From: an uncultured Nitrososphaerota archaeon
GTDB lineage: Archaea > Thermoproteota > Nitrososphaeria > Nitrososphaerales > Gagatemarchaeaceae
Length of the DNA stretch: 64,000 nucleotides
Assembly: GCA_963718895.1 (NCBI GenBank)
Contig: CAVRAG010000004.1
Span: 64,001 to 128,000, forward strand
Direction of reading: 5' to 3'
Part shown: piece after piece, positions 48,644 to 59,921 of the stretch
How positions within the stretch are numbered: position 1 is the first letter of the stretch
Layout of the letters: the number at the start of each line of letters is the position of its first letter
Notes under the pieces: generated by a model
What the model saw: only the letters and a program-made list of their open reading frames with translations
Told to the model about the DNA's origin: nothing
The model's database searches: none
Position numbers and translations under genes: made by a program

Positions 48644-50707
48644 TCACTCACGCTCGTTTGATCGAGTCCCGAGCTGCTCCTTGAGGGACTCGAGCTGCGT
48701 AATCGGGCTCTTGCACGCGAAGTTCTCGCAGATGTAGACGGCGGGCTTCCCGCCTATCTCCGTCTTTCCCTCCGTAAGCGAGGAGATCTCGGGGACGCCC
48801 CCTGCAGCGAGAGCGAGGACCTTGTTTGGAAGGAAGCGCATCTGGATCTCCCTTACCATGCCCTGCACATCCTTCTCACCCATCGATCCCGCCACCACCA
48901 CCTCCTTCGAGCCGAACCAGAAGTCGAGCGCGCAGAGCATGTAGGTGTGCGAGATGGGCGAGGACTCCAACGAGTCTCCGAAGGCCTTGAGGGTCTTCTC
49001 GGCCTTCTCCCTGAATTCCTGACGTCCCGTGAACTCTGAAAGGCGCAGGAGCGTGAGCGCCGCGGCGGCGTTGCCTGACGGCGTCGGGCCATCGTATCCT
49101 TCCTTCGCCCTGACCAGGACGTCGGGTGCCGAGCTCATGAAGAACCCTCCCCCGCTGGCGTCCCAGAAGAGCTCGTCCATCTTCTCGGCCAGCCGGACCG
49201 CTCCCCTGAGATAGGAGGGGTCGAAGCCCGCCTCGTAGAGGTCCAGCAGGCCTGCAGCGAGGAAGGAGTAGTCCTCGAGGGTCCCCTCGACCGCGACGGC
49301 CCCGTCCCTGTACCTCCTGAAGAGGATGTCCGAGACCAAGAGCTTCGCCAGGATGAAGTCGGCTGCCCCTGCCGCGGCCTCCAGGAACCTCCTCTCCCCG
49401 GTGACCTGGTAGGCGTACGCGAAAGCCGAGATGGCGAGCCCGTTCCACGAGGCGAGGACCTTGTCGTCGACAGCGGGTCGGCTCCTCTTGTTCCGGGCCT
49501 CGAGCAGCTTCGTCCTCGACTCTCTGACGACCTTCTTCGCGGCCTCGGCGTCCATGGCGAACTTTGAGGCGGCCTTCTCGATGGAACCAGTGACGTGGAG
49601 GATCGAGCGCCCGCCCTCGAAGTTGCCCTCGGGGACGACCCCGAAGATCTCGTCGATCAACCCGGAGTTCTTCTTTCCCAAGACCTCCTCGGTCTCTCCG
49701 GGCGTCCAGGTGTAGTAGTAGCCCTCACCGTCAGGAGTGTCTGCGTCCTGGGCGGAGTGGAACGCCCCCTCGGGACCCCTCATCTCTCTCAGCATCCACT
49801 CCAGCGTATCGACCGCCGTAGCGAGGAAAGTGGGCTCGCCCGTCACCTGATGCGCCTCGAGGTAGACGCGGGCGAGCAGAGCGTTGTCGTAGAGCATCTT
49901 CTCGAAGTGGGGCACGAGCCAGTACCTGTCGGTGGAGTAGCGGTGGAAACCTCCGCCCGCCTGGTCGTGGATGCCCCCGTCGGCCATCGATTGGAGGCTC
50001 TTCTTCACAGCCCGCAGCGCCGGCTCCTTCTTCGTCCTGCTGTGGTAGCGCAGCAGGAATTCGTGATAGCTCGGCAGGGGGAACTTCGGTGCCCCGCTGA
50101 AACCTCCGAACTGCTCGTCTAGGTTGGAGATGAGTTCGGCGTAGGCGCTGTCGGGTATCCACTTGGGAAGCTCGTCCCTGGGATGGAGCTCGTAGCCCCG
50201 CCCGATGTGCTTCATGAGTTCCTCGGAGTTCTCGGTGATTTCGCTGCGCTTGTTCTTCCAGAGATCCGAGATGAAGTCCAGGACCTGGGGGAAGCCCGGA
50301 AGCCCGTGAGCCGGGGCAGGAGGAAAGTACGTCCCCCCGTAGAAGGGCTTCAGGCCGGCGGTCAGGAAGACCGAGAGCGGCCAACCTCCCTGTCCGTTTA
50401 TCGCGATCACGGACTTCATGTATATCTCGTCGAGGTCCGGCCTCTCTTCTCTGTCGACCTTTATCGGGACGAACCGTGAGTTCAGCACCGATGCAATCTT
50501 CTCGTCCTCGAAGGACTCCTGAGCGAACCGATGACACCAGTGACAGGTGGAGTAGCCGATGCTGAGGAAGATCGGCTTGTCCTCCTCCTTGGCCTTTCGT
50601 ATGGCCTCGTCCCCCCACGGATACCAGTCCACCAGATTGTAGGCATGTTCAAGGAGGTACGGGCTCTTCTCGTTGATCAGTCGGTTGGGCCTTCGTTCCT
50701 CAGGCAT
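48644..50707 (-). CDS. YyaL/SSP411 thioredoxin-domain protein
   Basis: [28 protein letters not shown]. Confidence 0.93.
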
Positions 50708-50878: not shown

Positions 50879-51565
50879 TTGCCGAACACGTCCCTGGCCA
50901 GAGCCCTTTCCTCCGAGGCAAGGTGGAACATCCTTAACCTCTTGATGGCAAGGCCGCTCTCTGAGTCCCAGATACGCAAGGCCCTCGGAGCAGGCGCCCG
51001 TTCGGTTGGCGCCAATCTCTCCGAGCTCGTGAGCGCTCGCTTGGTGGACGTTCTTCATCAGAAGCTTCCATCAGGCAGGGAGGTGGTGGTCTACAGAATC
51101 GCACCATCTGCCCAGATGGTGGGCTTCCCACCGAGGAGCTACGAAGGCCTTAGCGAGGCTTTGATCAGAGGTCTCATCTCCTCACTGGGGGAGAAGAACG
51201 CAAGGTTTGTGATTCGGGACATAGGTCTGAAGCTCGGGGAGCAGATGGGACGCTCTCTGCTCACCGACACGGATTCGACGACGCTTACCATGAAGGAGTA
51301 CAGCGAGTTGTTCGTCAAGCGCCTGCTCGCTGCCCAGGACGCCTACCCCCAGATCCTGAGCCAGAAGCGTTCAGAGCTGGTCTATGAGCAATTCAACTGC
51401 CCCTTCCAAGAGCTTGCATCCAAGATGCCTGGGTTGATGTGCGACGTCATGGACGAAGCCGTGCACGACGGGCTAGACCGGGTTCTCAACGTCAAGACGG
51501 CCCGGCTCACCTGCATGGGACATGGTGACGCGGGGTGCAGGTTCCTCGTGACCCCGCGGCGTTGA
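50879..51565 (+). CDS. ArsR-type HTH regulator with C-terminal Cys/His metal-sensing (V4R-like) domain
   Basis: HTH; NCPF, CDVM, CMGHGDAGC. Confidence 0.8.
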   Translation: MPNTSLARALSSEARWNILNLLMARPLSESQIRKALGAGARSVGANLSELVSARLVDVLHQKLPSGREVVVYRIAPSAQMVGFPPRSYEGLSEALIRGLISSLGEKNARFVIRDIGLKLGEQMGRSLLTDTDSTTLTMKEYSELFVKRLLAAQDAYPQILSQKRSELVYEQFNCPFQELASKMPGLMCDVMDEAVHDGLDRVLNVKTARLTCMGHGDAGCRFLVTPRR

Positions 51566-51871
51566 TTCCACCGAAGGCTCGCGAGTCCGCGTGCTGTAGA
51601 TGGAGTAGACGAGGATGACCAGCCCAATTGCCGTCAGGGTCGACCTGAAGGCGTGAGCCTCGTCCAGTGTGAATCCTAGGAACTGATAGAGCACGCCCTC
51701 CACGAGGGAGGCCGCTCCCAGCATGCCGAAGCCGACAGCTGCGAGAAGGAAGGAGTGGCTCCGACTTCTCCTGTAGCCCCGAACGGCCAGCAAGACCAGA
51801 ACTAGGGCGATTGCCAGGGAGAAGACCTCGATTGCGCTGATGTACAAGATGAGACTTGACTCGACGGCCAT
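51473..51871 (-). CDS. three-TM membrane protein (GYRR...YSIY type)
   Basis: AVRGYRR, EAH, LVYSIYS; follows the wHTH gene. Confidence 0.7.
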   Translation of the reverse strand: MAVESSLILYISAIEVFSLAIALVLVLLAVRGYRRSRSHSFLLAAVGFGMLGAASLVEGVLYQFLGFTLDEAHAFRSTLTAIGLVILVYSIYSTRTREPSVESTPRGHEEPAPRVTMSHAGEPGRLDVENPV

Positions 51872-51873
51872 CG

Positions 51874-52238
51874 TCACACCGGGCCCATCATCGTCCAAAA
51901 ACGGAAGAACTTGTCGAGCATTGTGTCGTTGGGAACGAGGTCTACCTCCACGGTGTTTGTGAGGCCGTCGTACCGCAATTGGATCGATTTGACTATGCTT
52001 CTGTACATCACGTATCTCCCTCCACCCTCCAGGAGAATGTTCCTGTCCACGCGAGGAGCCCGACCTCGCAGAGATCGCTGACGTGTCTGTACGCGGTTCT
52101 GGAAGGTAAACCAAGCTCCTCTGAGATTTGGGCGATCGACTTCGGGCTTTGAATCGTCGAATTGATTACGCTTCTCGCTTCGTTCTCGCCTAGCATCTTT
52201 GCTATTCTCTCCTTCCGGAGCCGGTCATTGATTTGCAT
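51874..52238 (-). CDS. winged-HTH regulator (frameshifted near 52050)
   Basis: PKSIAQISEELGLPSRTAYRHV joins VDRNILLEGGGRYVMYRS. Confidence 0.7.
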
Positions 52239-52306
52239 ATGGCGCCTCGCCGAATTGCGGCAAAGCGCGCCTCTTATTATAAACGGCCTGCCAGCCGTTA
52301 GGATGC

Positions 52307-53674
52307 ATGACGATTCGTTCGAGGCGTGGTCTATCTCGCGCCGTTGGAAGAAGCAGGTTGCTGCTTTGTTCGCTCGCCCTTGTCAACGCGCTCTTGGTGC
52401 TGGCCCCCCTTGTGCCGGCCTCCGCCCAGACGCAGATTGTCACTGCCACTCCAGGATACATCAACCTGGGGATGACGACGTCGATAGCGGTGACGGCTCC
52501 GGCGGCCGGAACGTACACGGCCGTGGTGATCAAGCCAGACGGATCTTCGAGTTCACTCCCCTACACGTTCACCGCCGGAGGAAAGACGCAGGCTTCAGTC
52601 TTCGGGAACGCTACCTCGGGTTTCGGGACCCTGGTGAATCAGGTAGGAACCTACAACGTATTCGTAGAACAGGGTTCTGCGGTGATGGGCACCACTTCGT
52701 TCTACGCGACGAACAAAATCGTGATAACCATGGACATGGTCACCGGAGGAACCTGTTATTTCATCAACTCGGACGCCAGGGGGTACAAGTTCATCCCTAG
52801 GTTCTACGCCAGCTATGCATCGACCGGCGCCCTGCTCAACAACCTGACGCCCGGGGTCAAGATCACATTCACCCAACCGGACGGCAAGACGGTCTCGACC
52901 GCTTCGTGGGACACCGGCGCGCTCCTCTTCAGGGGACTGGTCCAGCCGGCCTGGAACTATACATACATAGGACCCTGGAACCCCACCGTCACGGCCCAGG
53001 ACGCCTTCGGGAACGCCGGAACGTACACCTACGCTGGAATCCCGTTCATTATGACGGCTGCCACACTCTCGACGAGCATCCAGATGATTGACGTCAAGAC
53101 GAGCGCTCTCGTCGCGTCGATCTACCCTGGAGAGTCCGTCACGATTAGCGCAACGGTCACGTATCCCACCAATGCTGAACCAACATCGGGCTTCGTGACA
53201 GGTCTAGACTCCGTCGTGCGGGGCGGTGTGGCCAACGCCGTCGTCGGCTACGGCGCGTACAATGCCACGACTGGGACCTTCAAAGGCGGCGACCTGGCGA
53301 CGGTGAAGCTTACCAACACAAACGGGGCCAATGGCACGTGGACGGGTCAGTTCGTGGTCCCCGCATCTCTCCCGACGCTTCCGGCGGGATCGAGCTTCGC
53401 CGTCTCGGTGACTTCGTCAGACAAGGCCAATCCTTCCAACACCGGGCTTCAGGTCATGGACCTCGGGCTGACTACAGCTCCTCAGGCCGGCGCGGCATCG
53501 ACGTCGACAGTCACTTCGGTCAGCACTGCGACGCAGGTAGTCTCACAGGTGAGTACCACGACGCAAACCGTCTCGCAGGTTACGCAGTCGATACCGACGA
53601 TTGCGTACGCTGGCATGGCGATCCTTCTGATAATAGGTCTCGCCATCGGGCTGACAGTGAGGATGCCCAAGTAG
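52307..53674 (+). CDS. secreted beta-rich protein with Ser/Thr linker and C-terminal TM anchor
   Basis: Signal peptide ending ASA-Q; STSTVTSVST linker; TM plus RMPK. Confidence 0.8.
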   Translation: MTIRSRRGLSRAVGRSRLLLCSLALVNALLVLAPLVPASAQTQIVTATPGYINLGMTTSIAVTAPAAGTYTAVVIKPDGSSSSLPYTFTAGGKTQASVFGNATSGFGTLVNQVGTYNVFVEQGSAVMGTTSFYATNKIVITMDMVTGGTCYFINSDARGYKFIPRFYASYASTGALLNNLTPGVKITFTQPDGKTVSTASWDTGALLFRGLVQPAWNYTYIGPWNPTVTAQDAFGNAGTYTYAGIPFIMTAATLSTSIQMIDVKTSALVASIYPGESVTISATVTYPTNAEPTSGFVTGLDSVVRGGVANAVVGYGAYNATTGTFKGGDLATVKLTNTNGANGTWTGQFVVPASLPTLPAGSSFAVSVTSSDKANPSNTGLQVMDLGLTTAPQAGAASTSTVTSVSTATQVVSQVSTTTQTVSQVTQSIPTIAYAGMAILLIIGLAIGLTVRMPK

Positions 53675-53684
53675 GCGCTGGCCG

Positions 53685-55452
53685 ATGAGCGCCCTGGGGA
53701 AGTTCGCCGTAAGCGCTTCTCTGGCCACGGTCTGTTTGCTCCTGCTGTCCGCAGGGAGCGCCCACGCCCAGAACGTGGCGCAGGCCTCCATCGTGGTCTC
53801 GTCACACGCAGGGTTTGTTGGAAGCGGGATTACCGTCTCTGGTACGGGGTACCCTCCCAGCACCAAACTGCTGCTCGAATGGAACTCGGCAAATGCCAGC
53901 TGGGTCGTCGGAGGTTCCCCGCCGCAGGTCACTGGGACCAAGGTCGTGCCAGTTGAGAAGGTCCTGGGCTCCGCCGAGTCCGATGCCTCGGGTTCGTTCA
54001 GCGTGCAGATCGCCGTGCCGCCTGACTTCGGGATGCAGCACGTCATGCAGGCGTACTATACCAACGGCACCGCCCTCGCTCCGAAGGCAACGTACACCCT
54101 CGAGCCTCAGTTCAGCGTCTCGCCGACGAGCGGGCCGGCCGGAACTCCGATCGCCGTGACCGGCACCGGGTTGGGCGACGGCCTCTACTCGACCAACTAC
54201 CACATCTACTGGGATAACAACTACGTAGGCTATGCCACTGCGCTCACCACTGGCGGGTCGACGAACTTCACAATCTATGCGTCGGGGGTGCCTGGAACGC
54301 ACTACCTCGCCGTATATCAGGGCTATCCGGGTCCCGGTTACCTGAACGCTGAACAAATACCAGTAGCGAGCCAGGGCCAGTCCTACTACCCTCCGGGGTG
54401 CGTAGTGATGACATCGTGCGCTATCCCATACTACGTGAACTTCACGGTCACGTCTGCATATTCCCAGACAACGACCAGCGGGAGCAGCGGTAGCCTGGCC
54501 ATCTCGGGATTGGCGGCCATCGTCCCCCTTCTTGCCGCGGTGATCGTTCCAGTGAGCGGGGGTCTCTATCTGTCCAGGCAGGATTCCGAAAGGCGCAGGG
54601 CCATCGCCAGGTCTACGGCAGCAATCCTCGTCGTCGTCCTGGTGGCAGTAGCTGGCGTCGCGCTCGTATTCTGCACTAGCTCAGGGCTCCTCATCGCAGA
54701 CCACGACCTCCTCGCTGTCATCGTCATCGACGCAGATCAACTTCACGCCCGTGGCTAGTGTCGACAGACCGCAGATAACGGTCCCAGTGCTCCACAACGC
54801 CACGACCGGCCCTCGAATCAGCGTCAGCCCAGAGATAGTCTCGGTCGGCCAGAACATAACGGTGACCGGCGCGGGCTTTGCGGCCGACACTCAACTCCCG
54901 ATAACCTGGTCGACGAGGCAGGGGAGTAACCTGCAAGGCTACAAGCTGGTCGCCCTGCCTTTGAGGAACGTTACCACGACGAGCGACGGGGCCTTCACTT
55001 TCACCATGAAGGTCCACTCGGACGTCGGGGGGCTCCATTTCATATCTGCCGGCAGCCTGACCACTAACTCGAACGGGACCCTCTTCCTCCAGAGGACCGG
55101 GACCATAAGCGAGATCCAGGGACCAGCGGGCACGAAGATCGTCATATCTTTCGTCGGGGTGGGATGGGACTACAACACGAACATCATCGCAGTCGACTAT
55201 GACAACTCATACGTGGGCTACGGTTGCGGCTTCAACACCGGCGGGAACGTGACGATTACCGTCTTCGCGGCGGGCGCGCCCGGGATACACAACATCGACA
55301 TCTACCCCTCTGTCTGGTGGGGTCCCTCTAGTCCGACTTCCCAGCAAGTCGTGATCTACAGATACCCGCTCCTGACCCCCCAGGACCATCCCGAACTGAT
55401 GCCGTCGTTCCACTTCACCTTCCTGATTACAGGGTCCGGCACGACCGGATAG
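53685..55452 (+). CDS. internally duplicated Ig/IPT-like surface protein with central TM hairpin (frameshift near 54685)
   Basis: Two copies of GPAGT...(W/Y)DN.YVGY...G.PG.H separated by two TM helices. Confidence 0.75.
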
Positions 55453-55558
55453 ATGGAGGATTGATGAGACTGACGCTTTCTCCGGCAACTTTCGTGACCA
55501 TGTACACCTCCCCTCGAGCTCGCGGTGTCATCCCCTTGGGCCTAGCCAGGAGCGAGCC

Positions 55559-56371
55559 ATGACCACGGAAAGCCGTGACGGGTCGGACAAAGAGCCGGTA
55601 AAGAACGATACTCAATCCCAGGTAACGCCCAGGAGTGACAGGAGCGCCACTCGAAGGAACCTGCTGAGGGCTAGTCTTGCGCTTGGCCTAGTGTTTGTGG
55701 TCGGAGGGATCGCCTCCCTGGCAAAGTCGCTCTTCTCCCCCGCCAACCCTCCTTCGCCAGAGGCGGTCCAGACCAACACCCCCACGGTGACCCAGACGAT
55801 TACCGTGACGCAGCAAGGAGGCAACCAGACGGCGAGTGCGTCCACCTCACAGGGGAGCAGCGAGAGTGCCTCGACAACAACAATTACGACCTCTTCTTCT
55901 CCTTTCCCACAGGTTCTGGTAACCAACGTCAGCGACCTGGTCGTGTCCCAACCGGTGGAGTTCAACTACCCTCTCGAGGAGACTCCGAACATCCTGGTCA
56001 AGCTCGGAGTGAAGGCCGTCGGAGGCGTTGGGCCCGACGAGGACATTGTCGCCTTCAGCCAGGTGTGTCAGCACCTGGGTTGCATCTACGCTTTCGTCGC
56101 CCCCAACACTTCCCCGTCGTGCGACAACACCTACAGTTCTTCCAAGCCGTCAGGATACTGCTGCTGCCACGGGAGCACCTATGACCTCTCCGCCGCCGGG
56201 AAGGTGACAGGCGGGCCAGCGCCGAGAGCGGTGCCCCAGGTGACCCTCCGAGTCGATTCCTCAGGCAACATCTACGCGATAGGCATGGGGCCGCCGACGA
56301 TCTTCGGGCACGACACGGGCTCGAACAACGTCTTGGACGATCTGCAAGGCGGGACCGTCGTGAGTGGATAG
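55559..56371 (+). CDS. Tat-exported Rieske [2Fe-2S] protein (SoxL/SoxF-like)
   Basis: TRRNLL Tat motif; GVGPDEDIVAFSQVCQHLGC; CCCHGSTYD; GPAP. Confidence 0.92.
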   Translation: MTTESRDGSDKEPVKNDTQSQVTPRSDRSATRRNLLRASLALGLVFVVGGIASLAKSLFSPANPPSPEAVQTNTPTVTQTITVTQQGGNQTASASTSQGSSESASTTTITTSSSPFPQVLVTNVSDLVVSQPVEFNYPLEETPNILVKLGVKAVGGVGPDEDIVAFSQVCQHLGCIYAFVAPNTSPSCDNTYSSSKPSGYCCCHGSTYDLSAAGKVTGGPAPRAVPQVTLRVDSSGNIYAIGMGPPTIFGHDTGSNNVLDDLQGGTVVSG

Positions 56372-57940
56372 TAGAATGCCGGGAAAGAGCGACGAGAAGG
56401 CCGAGGGTGGCAGGACCGCCGAGGATTCGTCGGGCAACGAACGGTTGGTCGACAGGGCCGTCCTCTGGTTCGACGCGAGGATTGGCCTCTCCCACCAGTT
56501 CCTGCGGCCGGCGCCGACCTACTCCGTCAACCCGTTCTACTGGCTCGGGGCTCTGGCAGTGGTCGCCTTCGTAATCCAGGGGGTGACGGGCATGCTGATG
56601 ATGATTTACTACATCCCTACGCCCACCCAGGCATATTCTTCCACCCTCTACATCTTCCAGGACGTCAGCTACGGCCGGTTCCTGGAGACCGTGCATCTCT
56701 ACACTGCGTACGCGATGATAATGCTAGCGTTTATGCACATGATGAGAGGCTTCTTCGTCTCCGTCCACAAGAAGCCGCGGGAGCTGATGTGGTTGACGGG
56801 GATGGGAATGGGGTTCGTCACGCTCGGCTTCGGCTTCACCGGTTACCTTCTCCCCTGGTCGGTCGTCTCCAAATCGGCGACCGATGTCGGGACAGGCATG
56901 ATTGGAGCCCTGCCGCAACCGTTCTCTTCCTACATAACGTTCCTGATCGTGGGCGGAGGAAGCTACACCGCGACAATGTTGCGGTTCTTCGAACTCCACG
57001 TCGTCGTACTGCCAGCTGTGCTGCTGGTCCTACTCGCTGGGAAGATGTATATGCTTGAAAGCCACGGTGTGAGCGAACCGGTTCTGGGCCCTGTGCCTCT
57101 GCCGGAGAAAAAGAGCAAGCTTATCCCAATCTTCCCCGACCTCTCGCTCTACCTCCTCGAGCTCGCCGCGTTGTTCGGCGTGGCGATGCTTCTCATCTCA
57201 GTTGCATTCCCGCTAACCCTGCCACCCCAGTACACGCCCGCGCTCGCTTCCCAGTACACTCCCCAGCCCGACTGGTATTTCCTGTGGATCTACCAGATCC
57301 TGAAGATATCGCTGTTCGAGGGGGCGGGGCTACCAGTCGCGCTCTCTGTCGTGACCCTGATATTCGTGGCTCTCACCCTCCTCCCGTTCATGGACAGGGG
57401 GAGACCCGCAGGATCGAGTCGAGGAGGATGTACGTTACGCTCGGCCTCATCTTCGTATCGGAGATTGCGGTCCTGACGATCTGGGGGTACCTGACTCCGG
57501 GGAGAATCATCCCGACGGAGCAGGCAGCGCTCGTACTCGGAGGCACGGCCCTCCTGATCACCCTGGTCTCGGCGGGAACCTACAAGGTGATCTTCAGGGG
57601 TCTGCGTGCAGGCACCGATTCGATGAAAGGCCAATCCCGCTCCTCCTCTCCCGGCACCCCCTACAGGACGAGAACGTTCAACTTCGCGGTGCTGTGGACC
57701 GCCGCGAGCTTCGTCGCAGTCCTGACCCTCGGAGCATTCGGCATAGGCGGTTCCATAGCCGCCTCGGTGCAGCTTCTGGTGCAGGGAACGGATATCTCGA
57801 TTCTTTCGTCTCTTGCCTTGTCTCTCGCAGAACTCTCGCTGGCGATCGTGGGTACCCTCTATCTCCTCTATCGGCTCGACCTTGGCACAGGCTCGATCAA
57901 ACGGCGCGTGAAGGCGTTCGAGGTGGGGTGGAAACCTTGA
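56364..57940 (+). CDS. cytochrome b (fused b6 plus subunit IV; frameshift near 57400)
   Basis: Heme His in VHLY, MHMM, LHVV and SHGV; GYLLPW; PDWYF. Confidence 0.9.
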
Positions 57941-58224
57941 CCGAAGCGGCCGAGCGAGTAGCTGTCCAGATAGCGGCGCTTCTTGTTATCCTGGGGTTCG
58001 TATCGTCTTTTGTGCTGTGGACAATCGATACAGCGTCCGCTTCGGGAGAGGCACTCTTCGCTCTCTACATGTCGGCAGACTTGATCTCATTCGCCATGAT
58101 ATCGTATGTCTATAGGGTGACGAAGGAGGGCGACGGGATCTCCCGAATCTGGACGTTCGTCGGCCTTTTTCTGCTGCTCGTTCTGATTGGTGCGGGTTTT
58201 GCATATGCGAGTCCCCCATACTAG
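57937..58224 (+). CDS. small three-TM protein
   Basis: TTG start overlaps the cytochrome b stop. Confidence 0.65.
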   Translation: MTEAAERVAVQIAALLVILGFVSSFVLWTIDTASASGEALFALYMSADLISFAMISYVYRVTKEGDGISRIWTFVGLFLLLVLIGAGFAYASPPY

Positions 58225-58295
58225 ACGAGGAGGCATGGTCCTGCCTGATTTGACTCGGTCGTCGAAAGTTGGAAGGGTAGAGAGGGGGCATTGAA

Positions 58296-58855
58296 ATGAC
58301 CGGTAGTCTGTCGAAGGCATTCATAGCCGTCTCCGTTTGGGGCGTCGCACTTGCCATCTACCACGCCTGGCAAGAGAAAGCTTTCGTCACCAATCCGTTC
58401 CTGGTGCACTACTCCTCGTTCGCCGCCTTGTATGGGGTCCCGTACTGGGCCTTCGGCGTAGTCTGGTTCCCGGTCTTGGTGATCGTCGGTCTCTGGTCGA
58501 CAAACCTAGGCAGGGCCAACCTGAGGATGGAGCTGCTCGCCCTGCTGAGCGTGGGAAACCTCTTCACTGCGTACCTCGTGTATCTGGACATCTTGGTGGT
58601 CAAGGCGTTCACCCTTGCCTACGCCGCTCTCTATCTCACAAATTACGTTCTGACCGGGCTGGTCGTGGCTCAGCACTGGAGAAACGACGTGATGGACGGG
58701 TTCGTCTATGGCACTGCGACGGGTGCGGCGATCGGTCTCCTCTTCGGACCGTATGGTGTAGCTGCGTGCGGCATCGCGGGGGAATCTTCGGCGCCGTCAG
58801 AAATTACGTGGTCCCCAGGACGCGTCGAAGCAACGTCCCGTCGCAGCCCAAGTGA
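58296..58855 (+). CDS. VKOR-like membrane protein lacking catalytic cysteines (3' frameshift)
   Basis: SSFAALYGVPYWAFGVVWF and YLVYLDILVVKAF pattern; CxxC position reads TLAY. Confidence 0.65.
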
Positions 58856-58936
58856 AAAAGGATCGTTGGCGCAGATTGGGGACGAATCGCTAATCCCTAT
58901 TCGCTGGCTCTCGAGTTCTGGCGGTTCTGGGAGGTT

Positions 58937-59170
58937 CTAGGGTTGCTTCCCGGGACTCGCTGATACCTGCATGACAGGCCGGGGCCAGATGCCGAGGACG
59001 GCCACAACTATGCCCACCAGGGCGACGAACGATCCGATGTAGATGAAGTTGGAGTTGTTGTCCATGAGTGAGCTCCCCCCGACCACGCCCTCTCCCTGGA
59101 GCGCAAAGACCGCACCAAGAAGGAGCAGCAGAAGTCCCACCAGTATCAATGTGAATTTTCTAGCTGACAA
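58937..59170 (-). CDS. small two-TM protein
   Basis: GAVFALQGEGVVGGSSLM. Confidence 0.6.
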   Translation of the reverse strand: MSARKFTLILVGLLLLLLGAVFALQGEGVVGGSSLMDNNSNFIYIGSFVALVGIVVAVLGIWPRPVMQVSASPGKQP

Positions 59171-59246: not shown

Positions 59247-59921
59247 TCAGAGCGAGACGATCCTGTCGAGCTCCTTCTCCCTCTGCTTGTAGTCGGGACA
59301 GAAGGCAGCGAGCCTCCCCTTGAACGCCGGAGAGTGGTTGAACTCGGAGAGGTGGGCGAGCTCGTGCAGTATGATGTACTCTCGGAGCCTCTCGGGGAGC
59401 GCGATCAGCTGCCAGTTGAAGGAGAGGCGCCCGTCCCTGGTGCAGTAGCCCCAGTTCCTCATCTGCCTCACGTCGGCCCTCCGGTACTTCACGCCTAGCA
59501 CCTCTGAGAGCGTCCCGAGCTTCCCGACCACGTACCTGGAAGTCTCTCTCAGGTACCATCGCCTGACGAGCTCCCTGACACGAGACCTCTGGCTCGAACG
59601 TACGATCACCTCCCTCCGTATCGGATCGTGAAGGAGCTCCTCCTTCTCCTGGCTCTCCTCGAAGATCAGCTTCAGGTGCTCCCCGTCGAACATTACCTGC
59701 TCCTCGTCCAGGATCCTCCTGCTCTGGGACATCTCCTCGTAGTGCTTGAGTATCCACGTCTGCCTGTTCCTTATGGCGGAGGCTAGGTCCACGTTCCTGC
59801 CTCGTGGCAGAACGATCTCGAGGGTCCTGTCGGCCCGGAACCTGAAGTAGGTGTAACGACGGCTGGAACCGACCGTCACCAAGTACTCGATGCTTCGGGT
59901 CCCGAGGTGGATGATAGGCAC
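59247..59921 (-). CDS. YgjP/DUF45 (M48-like) metal-dependent hydrolase
   Basis: NWGYC, FNWQL, HELAHL..NHS. Confidence 0.9.
   Translation of the reverse strand: MPIIHLGTRSIEYLVTVGSSRRYTYFRFRADRTLEIVLPRGRNVDLASAIRNRQTWILKHYEEMSQSRRILDEEQVMFDGEHLKLIFEESQEKEELLHDPIRREVIVRSSQRSRVRELVRRWYLRETSRYVVGKLGTLSEVLGVKYRRADVRQMRNWGYCTRDGRLSFNWQLIALPERLREYIILHELAHLSEFNHSPAFKGRLAAFCPDYKQREKELDRIVSL

Follow-up and report, generated by a model that had tools for sequence, protein, structure and literature searches.

How electrons leave a Rieske/cytochrome b complex in archaea without c-type cytochromes is partly understood, and for the abundant thaumarchaea of acid soil and peat that lack ammonia oxidation we found no study of this exit. 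The question is raised by a locus at positions 50879-58940 of a 64,000-nt window (the whole stretch of DNA analysed, whose coordinates are used throughout) of contig CAVRAG010000004.1, from an uncultured archaeon of the Gagatemarchaeaceae. A previous sequence-only reading described there an accessory Rieske/cytochrome b pair with no cytochrome c or blue-copper partner, preceded by two uncharacterised surface proteins, and suggested that these proteins are a new high-potential partner, or an extracellular oxidoreductase, of the bc-like complex. We denote the two proteins P455 and IgAB. Because in related archaea the pair also goes with a second quinol-linked module, we propose that it probably serves quinol-linked membrane modules as a new partner on their outer face, a reading to which we assign a probability of about 0.55.

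The gene inventory of the sequence-only reading (two regulators, a small membrane protein and a co-oriented run of genes) was recovered in full by the open reading frame (ORF) list and the family scans. The features at the core of the locus are:

52272-52282, + strand: TATA-box-like element cttattataaa, read from the sequence, about 25-35 nt 5' of the P455 ATG
52307-53674, + strand: P455, secreted and C-terminally anchored; signal peptide, beta-rich domains, serine/threonine-rich (S/T) stalk, C-terminal transmembrane (TM) helix
53685-55452, + strand: IgAB, a duplicated immunoglobulin (Ig)-like protein, broken by a +1 frameshift
55559-56371, + strand: Rieske 2Fe-2S protein, exported by the twin-arginine (Tat) route; RR motif, PF00355 E 1.1e-6
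56364-57940, + strand: cytochrome b of the fused b6 plus subunit IV type; PF00033/PF13631 E ~1e-32, with a frameshift
57937-58224, + strand: TM3, 95 amino acids (aa), three TM helices; its TTG start overlaps the cytochrome b stop codon

P455 and IgAB are 10 nt apart and IgAB and the Rieske gene 106 nt apart, while the Rieske and cytochrome b genes overlap by 8 nt and cytochrome b and TM3 by 4 nt. The cttattataaa element is a likely archaeal promoter of P455, and inspection of the IgAB-Rieske gap revealed no A/T-rich element comparable to it. Because of the tight spacing and the overlaps, and since a TATA-like box was seen only before P455, the genes from P455 to at least TM3 would form one transcription unit. 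A motif scan detected neither CxxCH nor CxxC in the proteins of the locus, and none of them matched a cupredoxin family of Pfam, which agrees with the absence of CxxCH and cupredoxin motifs noted previously. None of the known acceptors of bc-type complexes (cytochrome c1 or f, CbsA, a cupredoxin) is thus encoded in the locus.

Linkage of P455 and IgAB to quinol-linked membrane modules

A scan of species-representative genomes with an IgAB profile yielded 26 loci. P455, IgAB, Rieske, cytochrome b and TM3 lie together within 10 kb in 16 of these, from 16 assemblies, and likewise in 9 of 12 loci fetched from genomes of the same genus. Counting the window, the order is P455-IgAB-Rieske-cytochrome b-TM3 in ten loci, P455-Rieske-cytochrome b-TM3-IgAB in five, and Rieske-cytochrome b-TM3-P455-IgAB and IgAB-P455-Rieske-cytochrome b-TM3 in one each; the genes are always co-directional. 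Since the order has been rearranged without dispersal of the genes, these arrangements argue for selection on the linkage of all five. Most of the linked loci come from one genus and hence are not independent; the linkage is also present in loci labelled Conexivisphaerales (L055) and Nitrosopumilales (L050).

Ten of the 26 loci have no Rieske/cytochrome b. P455 and IgAB homologs are followed directly by a Tat-exported Fer4_11 protein (4Fe-4S dicluster) and NrfD in L065 and at a second pair in L045. In L063, from a groundwater lineage whose copy is 38% identical, the order is Fer4_11-NrfD-Ig-P455-IgAB-x-IgAB, followed by a TlpA/AhpC-like thioredoxin and a DsbD_TM protein. The neighbourhoods of both surface proteins, which the sequence-only reading had proposed to examine, place them with Rieske/cytochrome b/TM3 in 16 of the 26 loci and with an NrfCD module in three. 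What we found is redox neighbours and close spacing behind a single TATA-like box, rather than homologs that never accompany redox genes or S-layer or adhesin genes transcribed on their own. Attached to either Rieske/cytochrome b/TM3 or Tat-4Fe-4S/NrfD, the pair therefore holds the place taken elsewhere by cytochrome c1, CbsA, cupredoxins or multihaem subunits.

The genome of the window carries, on contig C8, a second and plain pair of Rieske (227 aa) and cytochrome b (499 aa) genes without P455, IgAB or TM3. This C8-type cytochrome b is widespread in the genus; of the window type we found copies in 10 other same-genus genomes and fragments in G022. Clear matches to IgAB and P455 occur in the same 11 of 22 same-genus genomes (54-96% complete). 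Ten of the 11 also have the window-type cytochrome b (fragmentary in G022), and the eleventh, G021, has the NrfCD version of the pair; G021 is the sole holder of P455/IgAB among those same-genus genomes for which the C8 type was the only cytochrome b found. The description of the locus as accessory fits its own genome, with the second pair on C8; it does not fit every relative, because in G007, G009 and G018 the window type is the only close cytochrome b found.

We noticed a separate arrangement around IgAB genes that stand alone. In L053, L057 and L060 (~5-19 kb in each) IgAB belongs to a conserved cluster with a DUF929 protein, a ~470-aa unknown protein, two PQQ-dependent dehydrogenases, a membrane protein of ZIP-like type and an MFS transporter; L057 adds a small Cupredoxin_1 protein. 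By its gene listing, made without a Pfam scan, L064 appears to share this arrangement. At L051 a plastocyanin-family protein is encoded just downstream of a lone IgAB.

The host lineage

Homologs of P455 and IgAB come from metagenome-assembled genomes labelled Nitrososphaerota, Nitrososphaerales or Thaumarchaeota archaeon. The GC content of the window, 53-65%, lies mostly inside the 54-62% given for Gagatemarchaeaceae in a published description (PMC10640624). Partial copies of the sequence were found in metagenomes from soil, peat and one bioreactor. A search for archaeal AmoA gave no match in the genome of the window (80.5% complete), in G007 or in G018, while it detected the protein in three positive-control genomes of the same order and other families; because of this the lineage does not appear, from its gene content, to oxidise ammonia.

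A bc-type Rieske protein and cytochrome b

The Rieske protein consists of an RR signal, one TM helix, a ~50-residue S/T-rich tether and a head domain. All 16 aligned sequences share its boxes CQHLGC and CCCHGS without change, so that the exported head has the CxHxGC and CxCHGS boxes of a bc-type complex. Box II reads CHGS.Y, which we take to be the pattern of higher-potential Rieske centres. Apart from the expected cysteines of the cluster and the disulfide, two further Cys of the protein encoded at 55559-56371 are invariant, the middle C of CCCH and one in a P-x-C ~13 residues after box I. At 104.3 bits, the protein also scores above the 95.65 cut-off of TIGR02694, the model for AioB, the small subunit of arsenite oxidase. 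An arsenite oxidase was rejected, since the AioA model TIGR02693 has no match in the 80.5%-complete genome. Because AioA was not found, and because the gene overlaps cytochrome b and is conserved with it, the protein is by its sequence and context a bc-type Rieske protein.

The cytochrome b is SoxC-like with extra C-terminal helices. The SoxC model is its best match over the whole length, far under the cut-off; with the two pieces joined, the match runs over residues 35-346 and on over 40-147 of the second. A Qo motif PDWY, as expected of a bc-type complex, is present in 15 of 15 aligned sequences; it is the common form in archaea according to a cytochrome b survey (PMC4122944). Helix B reads H-x13-H and helix D H-x14-K in all 15 sequences, including the C8 paralog, so that Lys replaces the second helix-D His and the set of four axial His for haems bL and bH is incomplete. 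Within the cytochrome b reading frame at 56364-57398, helix D, LHVVVLPAVLLVLLAGK, has this Lys where the ligand of haem bH is expected (His197 in yeast numbering), and the same Lys was seen in L031:8443-9942 and 13 related loci, in both cytochrome b types. The survey dropped sequences without four His, and in the sections accessible to us it reports the loss of this ligand for Pyrobaculum only (PMC4122944). TM3, which matches no family of Pfam or NCBIfam, follows cytochrome b in all 16 related Rieske-type loci.

Comparison with known complexes

The closest parallel is the SoxL/SoxN-CbsA/CbsB cytochrome ba complex of Sulfolobales, a bc1 analog that the sequence-only reading had already brought up. 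In that cluster an exported membrane-anchored protein replaces cytochrome c1 and a small hydrophobic protein is added (PMC5461723 and PMC4122944). The window shares this plan, a Rieske protein and cytochrome b with an exported anchored protein and a small hydrophobic protein, and SoxC is the best, far sub-threshold model for its cytochrome b. The analogy holds for position. It does not extend to the proteins: P455, IgAB and TM3 match no CbsA or CbsB model at E<=0.01 in NCBIfam, which presumably holds models of both, P455 has no His for haem ligation, and two outer-face proteins stand here in place of one, the pair occurring with NrfCD modules as well.

Other Rieske/cytochrome b complexes use blue-copper acceptors of the sulfocyanin, halocyanin or plastocyanin type. 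The locus resembles these in lacking a c-type cytochrome motif, and its genome is rich in TM-anchored plastocyanin-like proteins; it differs in that a Pfam scan found no cupredoxin gene in or beside either the window locus or the C8 locus, and in that IgAB is no cupredoxin by profile. A 4Fe-4S dicluster protein and an NrfD-family protein form the quinol-interacting core of Alternative complex III and of NrfCD and PsrBC systems. L045, L065 and L063 encode P455/IgAB with such a core and, unlike those systems, have no multihaem cytochrome or molybdopterin subunit beside it; this version is absent from the window itself.

The core of the locus is thus a known kind of complex. In the literature on respiration of Thaumarchaeota and Gagatemarchaeaceae and on CbsA/SoxL/SoxN we found no description of P455/IgAB or of their link to Rieske/cytochrome b, and no publication on the two-protein module, TM3 or the exchange of Rieske/cytochrome b for NrfCD. 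The main text of the Gagatemarchaeaceae paper contains 0 occurrences of 'Rieske' or 'complex III', its supplementary gene tables lying outside this scope (PMC10640624).

Architecture of P455 and IgAB

P455 has no Pfam family (search of the window proteins, E<=0.01) and no NCBIfam model at E<=0.01, and its 152 homologs at E<=1e-3 are all annotated 'hypothetical'. It has the traits of a surface protein: a signal peptide, an S/T-rich stalk (389-432), N-glycosylation sequons and, after the stalk, a C-terminal TM anchor. An AlphaFold2 (AF2) model built on 65 sequences (mean predicted local distance difference test, pLDDT, 81) shows three tandem MG/FN3-like beta-sandwiches. The best structural match of residues 40-135 is an MG domain of alpha2-macroglobulin (Z 10.1, root-mean-square deviation, rmsd, 3.0 over 85 residues), and a profile search of Protein Data Bank (PDB) sequences returned only a PKD domain (E 0.0017). 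One Cys, C150, is invariant.

IgAB likewise matches no Pfam family at E<=0.01, and NCBIfam at the same threshold gives only a weak chromoprotein hit. Its 183 homologs at E<=1e-3 are all 'hypothetical', some carrying precomputed PF01833 or PF00960 assignments. The protein starts with a signal peptide and two Ig-like domains (A1 and A2), continues through a TM hairpin with a conserved cytoplasmic loop and an S/T linker, and ends with two more Ig-like domains (B1 and B2), a layout that predicts a consistent out-in-out topology. The AF2 model (598 residues, pLDDT 78, 72 sequences) gave for residues 30-140 a best single-domain match to the IPT/TIG domain of EBF3 (Z 9.7, rmsd 2.5, 82 residues). An IgAB profile found nothing under E 0.25 among PDB sequences, and the ESM Atlas returned TIG-type clusters only (0.92-0.93). 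Fold searches with the whole models of both proteins (Foldseek pdb and VIA-wide, which barely probed IgAB half B) gave generic tandem Ig/MG/FN3/IPT-TIG matches only, with TM-scores <0.3, including alpha2-macroglobulin, complement, adhesins and one S-layer protein (7ptp). IPT/TIG and macroglobulin Ig-like domains are therefore the nearest structures to IgAB 30-140 and P455 40-135, and these families differ in lacking the two-domain His/Cys/Asp unit of IgAB, the TM hairpin between its halves and its genomic context.

That unit lies in half B (~360-598; residue numbers are those of G018). H460, D515, N516, C523, D547, D576 and H585 are invariant in 17 of 17 diverse sequences, a set that includes the NrfCD-linked and the 38%-identical copies. 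In the 72 sequences of the alignment all of these remain invariant except D547, which is nearly so; H544 and H577 are nearly invariant, and the residue at 581 can be M, L, I, V, F, S or T. By the strand order of the AF2 model, H460 sits at the top of B1, the end next to B2, and C523, the conserved low-confidence 552-583 loop (with D576, H577 and 581) and H585 lie at the abutting end (the bottom) of B2. Because this strand topology, rather than measured distances, places invariant His, Cys and Asp facing each other, we suggest that the His2-Cys(-Asp) cluster at the B1/B2 interface is a candidate mononuclear metal site. Such a site, its fourth position being variable (hydrophobic or Met), brings to mind type 1 copper chemistry; Zn would fit it as well, or it may supply a ligand to haem b as in beta-sandwich cytochromes.

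We considered whether IgAB is a type 1 copper cupredoxin, which its profile and its residue order speak against. There is no Pfam hit, the hhalign probability is 0.8%, and the order of ligand-like residues, H460...C523...H577-x3-M/L581-x3-H585, is unlike the His...Cys-x(n)-His-x(m)-Met loop of cupredoxins. A complex prediction of the Rieske head (A5 116-275) with IgAB half B (A3 362-598), 2Fe-2S and Zn, run without controls, scored 0.00 against a mark of 0.32 and weighs neither for nor against an interaction.

The wider IgAB family

When 1.84 billion representatives were searched by profile, 2,179 relatives of IgAB came up, 107 of them at E<=1e-30. They include a ~500-aa class with lipoprotein-type signals, within which one member is labelled Haloarculaceae. 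In an alignment of 63 sequences (62 representatives and the reference) H460 is kept in 60, C523 in 59, H544 in all 63, D576 in 57 and H577 in 50; only 27 retain H585, and 21 have Arg there. We fetched 80 metagenome loci of the 500-aa class (L074-L153), 18 of which were examined in detail. These soil loci have TonB receptors and outer-membrane barrels among their neighbours. Since the neighbours across the wider family are heterogeneous, the basic activity of IgAB need not be respiratory, and its coupling to quinol modules would be a feature of the thaumarchaeal branch. Half B matched none of 400 other genomes of the phylum at E<=1e-15; among the genomes searched the family is rare outside the lineage.

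We also observed, directly 5' of the IgAB relative in 12 of the 18 loci, a gene for a ~160-aa secreted protein with one invariant Cys and no Pfam family (for example L075:5229-5708, L093:6477-6974 and L121:6520-6987). It shares the motif 'TVTA.D..G..G...PF' with P455. Homology of the two is unsupported, the hhalign probability being 2.2% over a 29-residue motif.

Function of the P455/IgAB pair

In the arrangement we favour, a quinol-oxidising module made of the Tat-exported Rieske protein, the fused cytochrome b and the three-TM subunit would be joined by an outer-face module made of P455 and IgAB, lineage-specific, glycoprotein-like, membrane-anchored proteins of several Ig-like domains. The PDWY Qo site would oxidise quinol, the Rieske head on its tether would take the electron outward, and the electron would be passed to, or at, the P455/IgAB assembly, for which the His2-Cys(-Asp) cluster of IgAB half B at the Ig-domain interface offers a candidate mononuclear metal site. 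Both the physical association and the direction of electron flow are what we infer from this arrangement. That IgAB itself carries the electron we consider doubtful. Doubtful too is the boldest form of the proposal: that IgAB represents a new class of metalloprotein carrier, a beta-sandwich derived from IPT/TIG domains with its His2-Cys site between two Ig-like domains, that with P455 it is the outer-face acceptor, or an extracellular oxidoreductase, for the unrelated quinol modules Rieske/cytochrome b and NrfCD in thaumarchaea without ammonia oxidation, and that it has hundreds of uncharacterised relatives in soil bacteria and haloarchaea.

Several observations weigh against a role of the pair as redox partner. 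Mature P455 contains no His. Neither protein shows a known cofactor motif, with no CxxCH and no cupredoxin or haem family in Pfam or NCBIfam, and no cupredoxin or haem-binding beta-sandwich was among the listed fold matches of the whole models, in which half B was barely probed. An hhalign comparison of half B with seven plastocyanin-like domains of the same genome gave a probability of 0.8%. Rieske/cytochrome b/TM3 clusters without nearby P455/IgAB exist in G020, G022, G024 and G030, contig ends limiting two of these. Across the wider family the ~160-aa protein is the sole recurrent neighbour of IgAB, the rest being heterogeneous with no consistent redox module, a further sign that the family's activity need not be respiratory. 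The genome also encodes, outside the locus, 11 plastocyanin-type matches and two haem-copper oxidases, and a conventional acceptor is therefore available. Finally, the IgAB frameshift site, discussed below, is covered by no sequencing run, which leaves some room for gene decay there. Of the earlier suggestion of a high-potential partner or extracellular oxidoreductase, the functional link is thus supported by synteny, while mature P455 has no His and neither profile comparison nor whole-model fold searches gave IgAB a cupredoxin signal.

Because those 11 plastocyanin-like proteins are encoded elsewhere in the genome, the most serious competitor is a non-redox role, which we regard as possible, if on balance unlikely. 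P455 and IgAB would then be structural or docking subunits, a glycosylated scaffold under the S-layer that positions or protects the complexes or docks a blue-copper carrier; the Rieske electrons would go to the plastocyanin-like proteins, and the conserved His, Cys and Asp would form a structural Ca or Zn site or an intersubunit contact. The purely generic Ig/MG/FN3/IPT-TIG folds and the His-free P455 fit this well, as does the fact that the eight plastocyanin-like proteins examined have TM anchors or S/T-rich stalks like those of P455 and IgAB. The DxDN and Asp-rich conserved positions of IgAB resemble the Ca sites of Ig-like adhesin domains, and L057 and L051 have a cupredoxin or plastocyanin gene near a lone IgAB. 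A scaffold accounts less well for the NrfCD operons of L045 and L065, which encode no other candidate acceptor or catalytic subunit and in which the P455 and IgAB homologs sit where one is expected. In an exported domain, a lone Cys and two or three His, all of them invariant, would be unusual for a purely structural site, and the L063 cluster includes a thiol-reducing pair, the TlpA-like thioredoxin and DsbD_TM.

A second alternative takes P455 and IgAB as ordinary surface proteins (S-layer, stalk or adhesin) without functional relation to the complex, their adjacency reflecting the shared ancestry of close genomes. Archaeal surface glycoproteins typically have such a signal peptide, S/T stalk, N-glycosylation sequons and C-terminal TM helix, the fold matches include adhesins and an S-layer protein (7ptp), the linked loci come mostly from one genus, and members of the wider family have no fixed redox context. 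We consider this improbable, since the five genes stay together in four different orders and in loci labelled Conexivisphaerales and Nitrosopumilales, paralogous pairs are linked with another quinol module at three loci, among them that of the 38%-identical groundwater lineage, and the start/stop spacing points to a single transcription unit; presence in only 11 of 22 same-genus genomes would also suit an essential S-layer poorly.

As a partner of quinol-linked modules, the five-gene unit and the reuse of its pair with a second quinol module provide a testable candidate respiratory partner with a list of conserved residues. Should IgAB bind a redox metal, the few biological electron carriers would gain a new fold, and a large family of soil proteins now annotated 'hypothetical' would gain a function. 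Without such a metal, the pair would still count as a new accessory module for the respiratory complexes of archaea.

Frameshifts in IgAB and cytochrome b

IgAB had been read as one gene in one frame over 53685-55452. We found that frame 0 ends at a stop at 54758 and that the second half lies in frame +1, open from 54652. The +1 frameshift falls between these positions, with a best placement near 54665-54675, where there is no long homopolymer. In 11 of the 12 IgAB genes from 12 loci of same-genus genomes IgAB is a single ORF of 544-628 aa, the exception being G009, which has an indel of its own. The frame of cytochrome b shifts at five consecutive G (57396-57400), a junction that is in frame in all nine relatives' loci compared.

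Four public soil and peat runs were mapped to the region, and none covers the IgAB stretch 54528-54751. In one run, X1, a 203-nt contig (depth 3) differs from the window solely by an added G behind 57396, which brings cytochrome b back into frame; a single low-depth contig is weak evidence, and it agrees with the orthologs. Single indels also occur in IgAB of G009, in Rieske/cytochrome b of G010, and in L048 and L064, among relatives assembled into few contigs, which suggests indel-prone assemblies rather than repeated gene decay. Both breaks in the window are therefore probably assembly errors, with direct support for cytochrome b only. Decay of the locus in this strain, with both frameshifts real and the C8 pair doing the work, draws on two frameshifts inside 3 kb, on an IgAB shift outside any long homopolymer and outside the coverage of every run, and on the second Rieske/cytochrome b pair, and is very unlikely given the frame-restoring G in an independent contig identical across 203 nt, the absence of further stops or degraded regions, the 69-82% identity of the halves of each gene to intact orthologs, and the comparable indels in relatives assembled into few contigs.

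Isolated frameshifts in IgAB, Rieske or cytochrome b of relatives, most of them with genomes in few contigs, were seen at L012:5340-7146, L016:5328-8072, L048, L064 and L071.

Regulators, the VKOR-like protein and flanking genes

The remaining features of the locus are:

50879-51565, + strand: reg228, an ArsR-type winged helix-turn-helix (HTH) regulator; NCBIfam HTH_metalloreg E 6.2e-6
51473-51871, - strand: DUF7521 small membrane protein; PF24365 E 7.3e-15, starting at an internal Met
52008-52238, - strand: HTH76, a 76-aa HTH protein divergent from P455; weak HTH_20/IclR/HTH_24 matches
58296-58940, + strand: VKOR-like membrane protein with four to five helices; PF07884 21.7 bits, cut-off 27.5

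The last gene runs to 58940 and not, as previously placed, to 58855. A CxxC active site and loop cysteines define VKOR. The similarity to this family is there, below the cut-off (21.7 against 27.5 bits), and the catalytic cysteines are not: the protein has one Cys and no CxxC or loop cysteines. Because four homologs (L015:1801-2442; L050, L056 and L059) are likewise Cys-poor and without CxxC, it appears from its sequence to be a VKOR-fold protein minus the redox cysteines. A homolog lies within 10 kb of the cluster in 4 of the 16 related loci.

The C-terminal domain of reg228 has four Cys and a weak MetOD1/ATC_hydrolase-like match (Pfam MetOD1 E 1.4e-3, under the cut-off). The locus is flanked upstream by a gene for a 687-aa DUF255/Thioredox_DsbH protein (48644-50707, - strand, E 6.4e-72) and downstream by one for a YgjP-like metallopeptidase (59247-59921, - strand, E 2.4e-45); in the relatives' loci examined neither showed a conserved link to the cluster. 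The trio of reg228, DUF7521 and HTH76 (50879-52238) was not found in the stretches fetched from same-genus loci. It recurs, flanking the P455/IgAB/NrfCD cluster, in the 38%-identical lineage of L063 (1236-2434 and 13061-14200), where the reg228 homologs are 40-45% identical, the DUF7521 homolog, 56% identical, adjoins a reg228 homolog, and a homolog of HTH76 is present as well.

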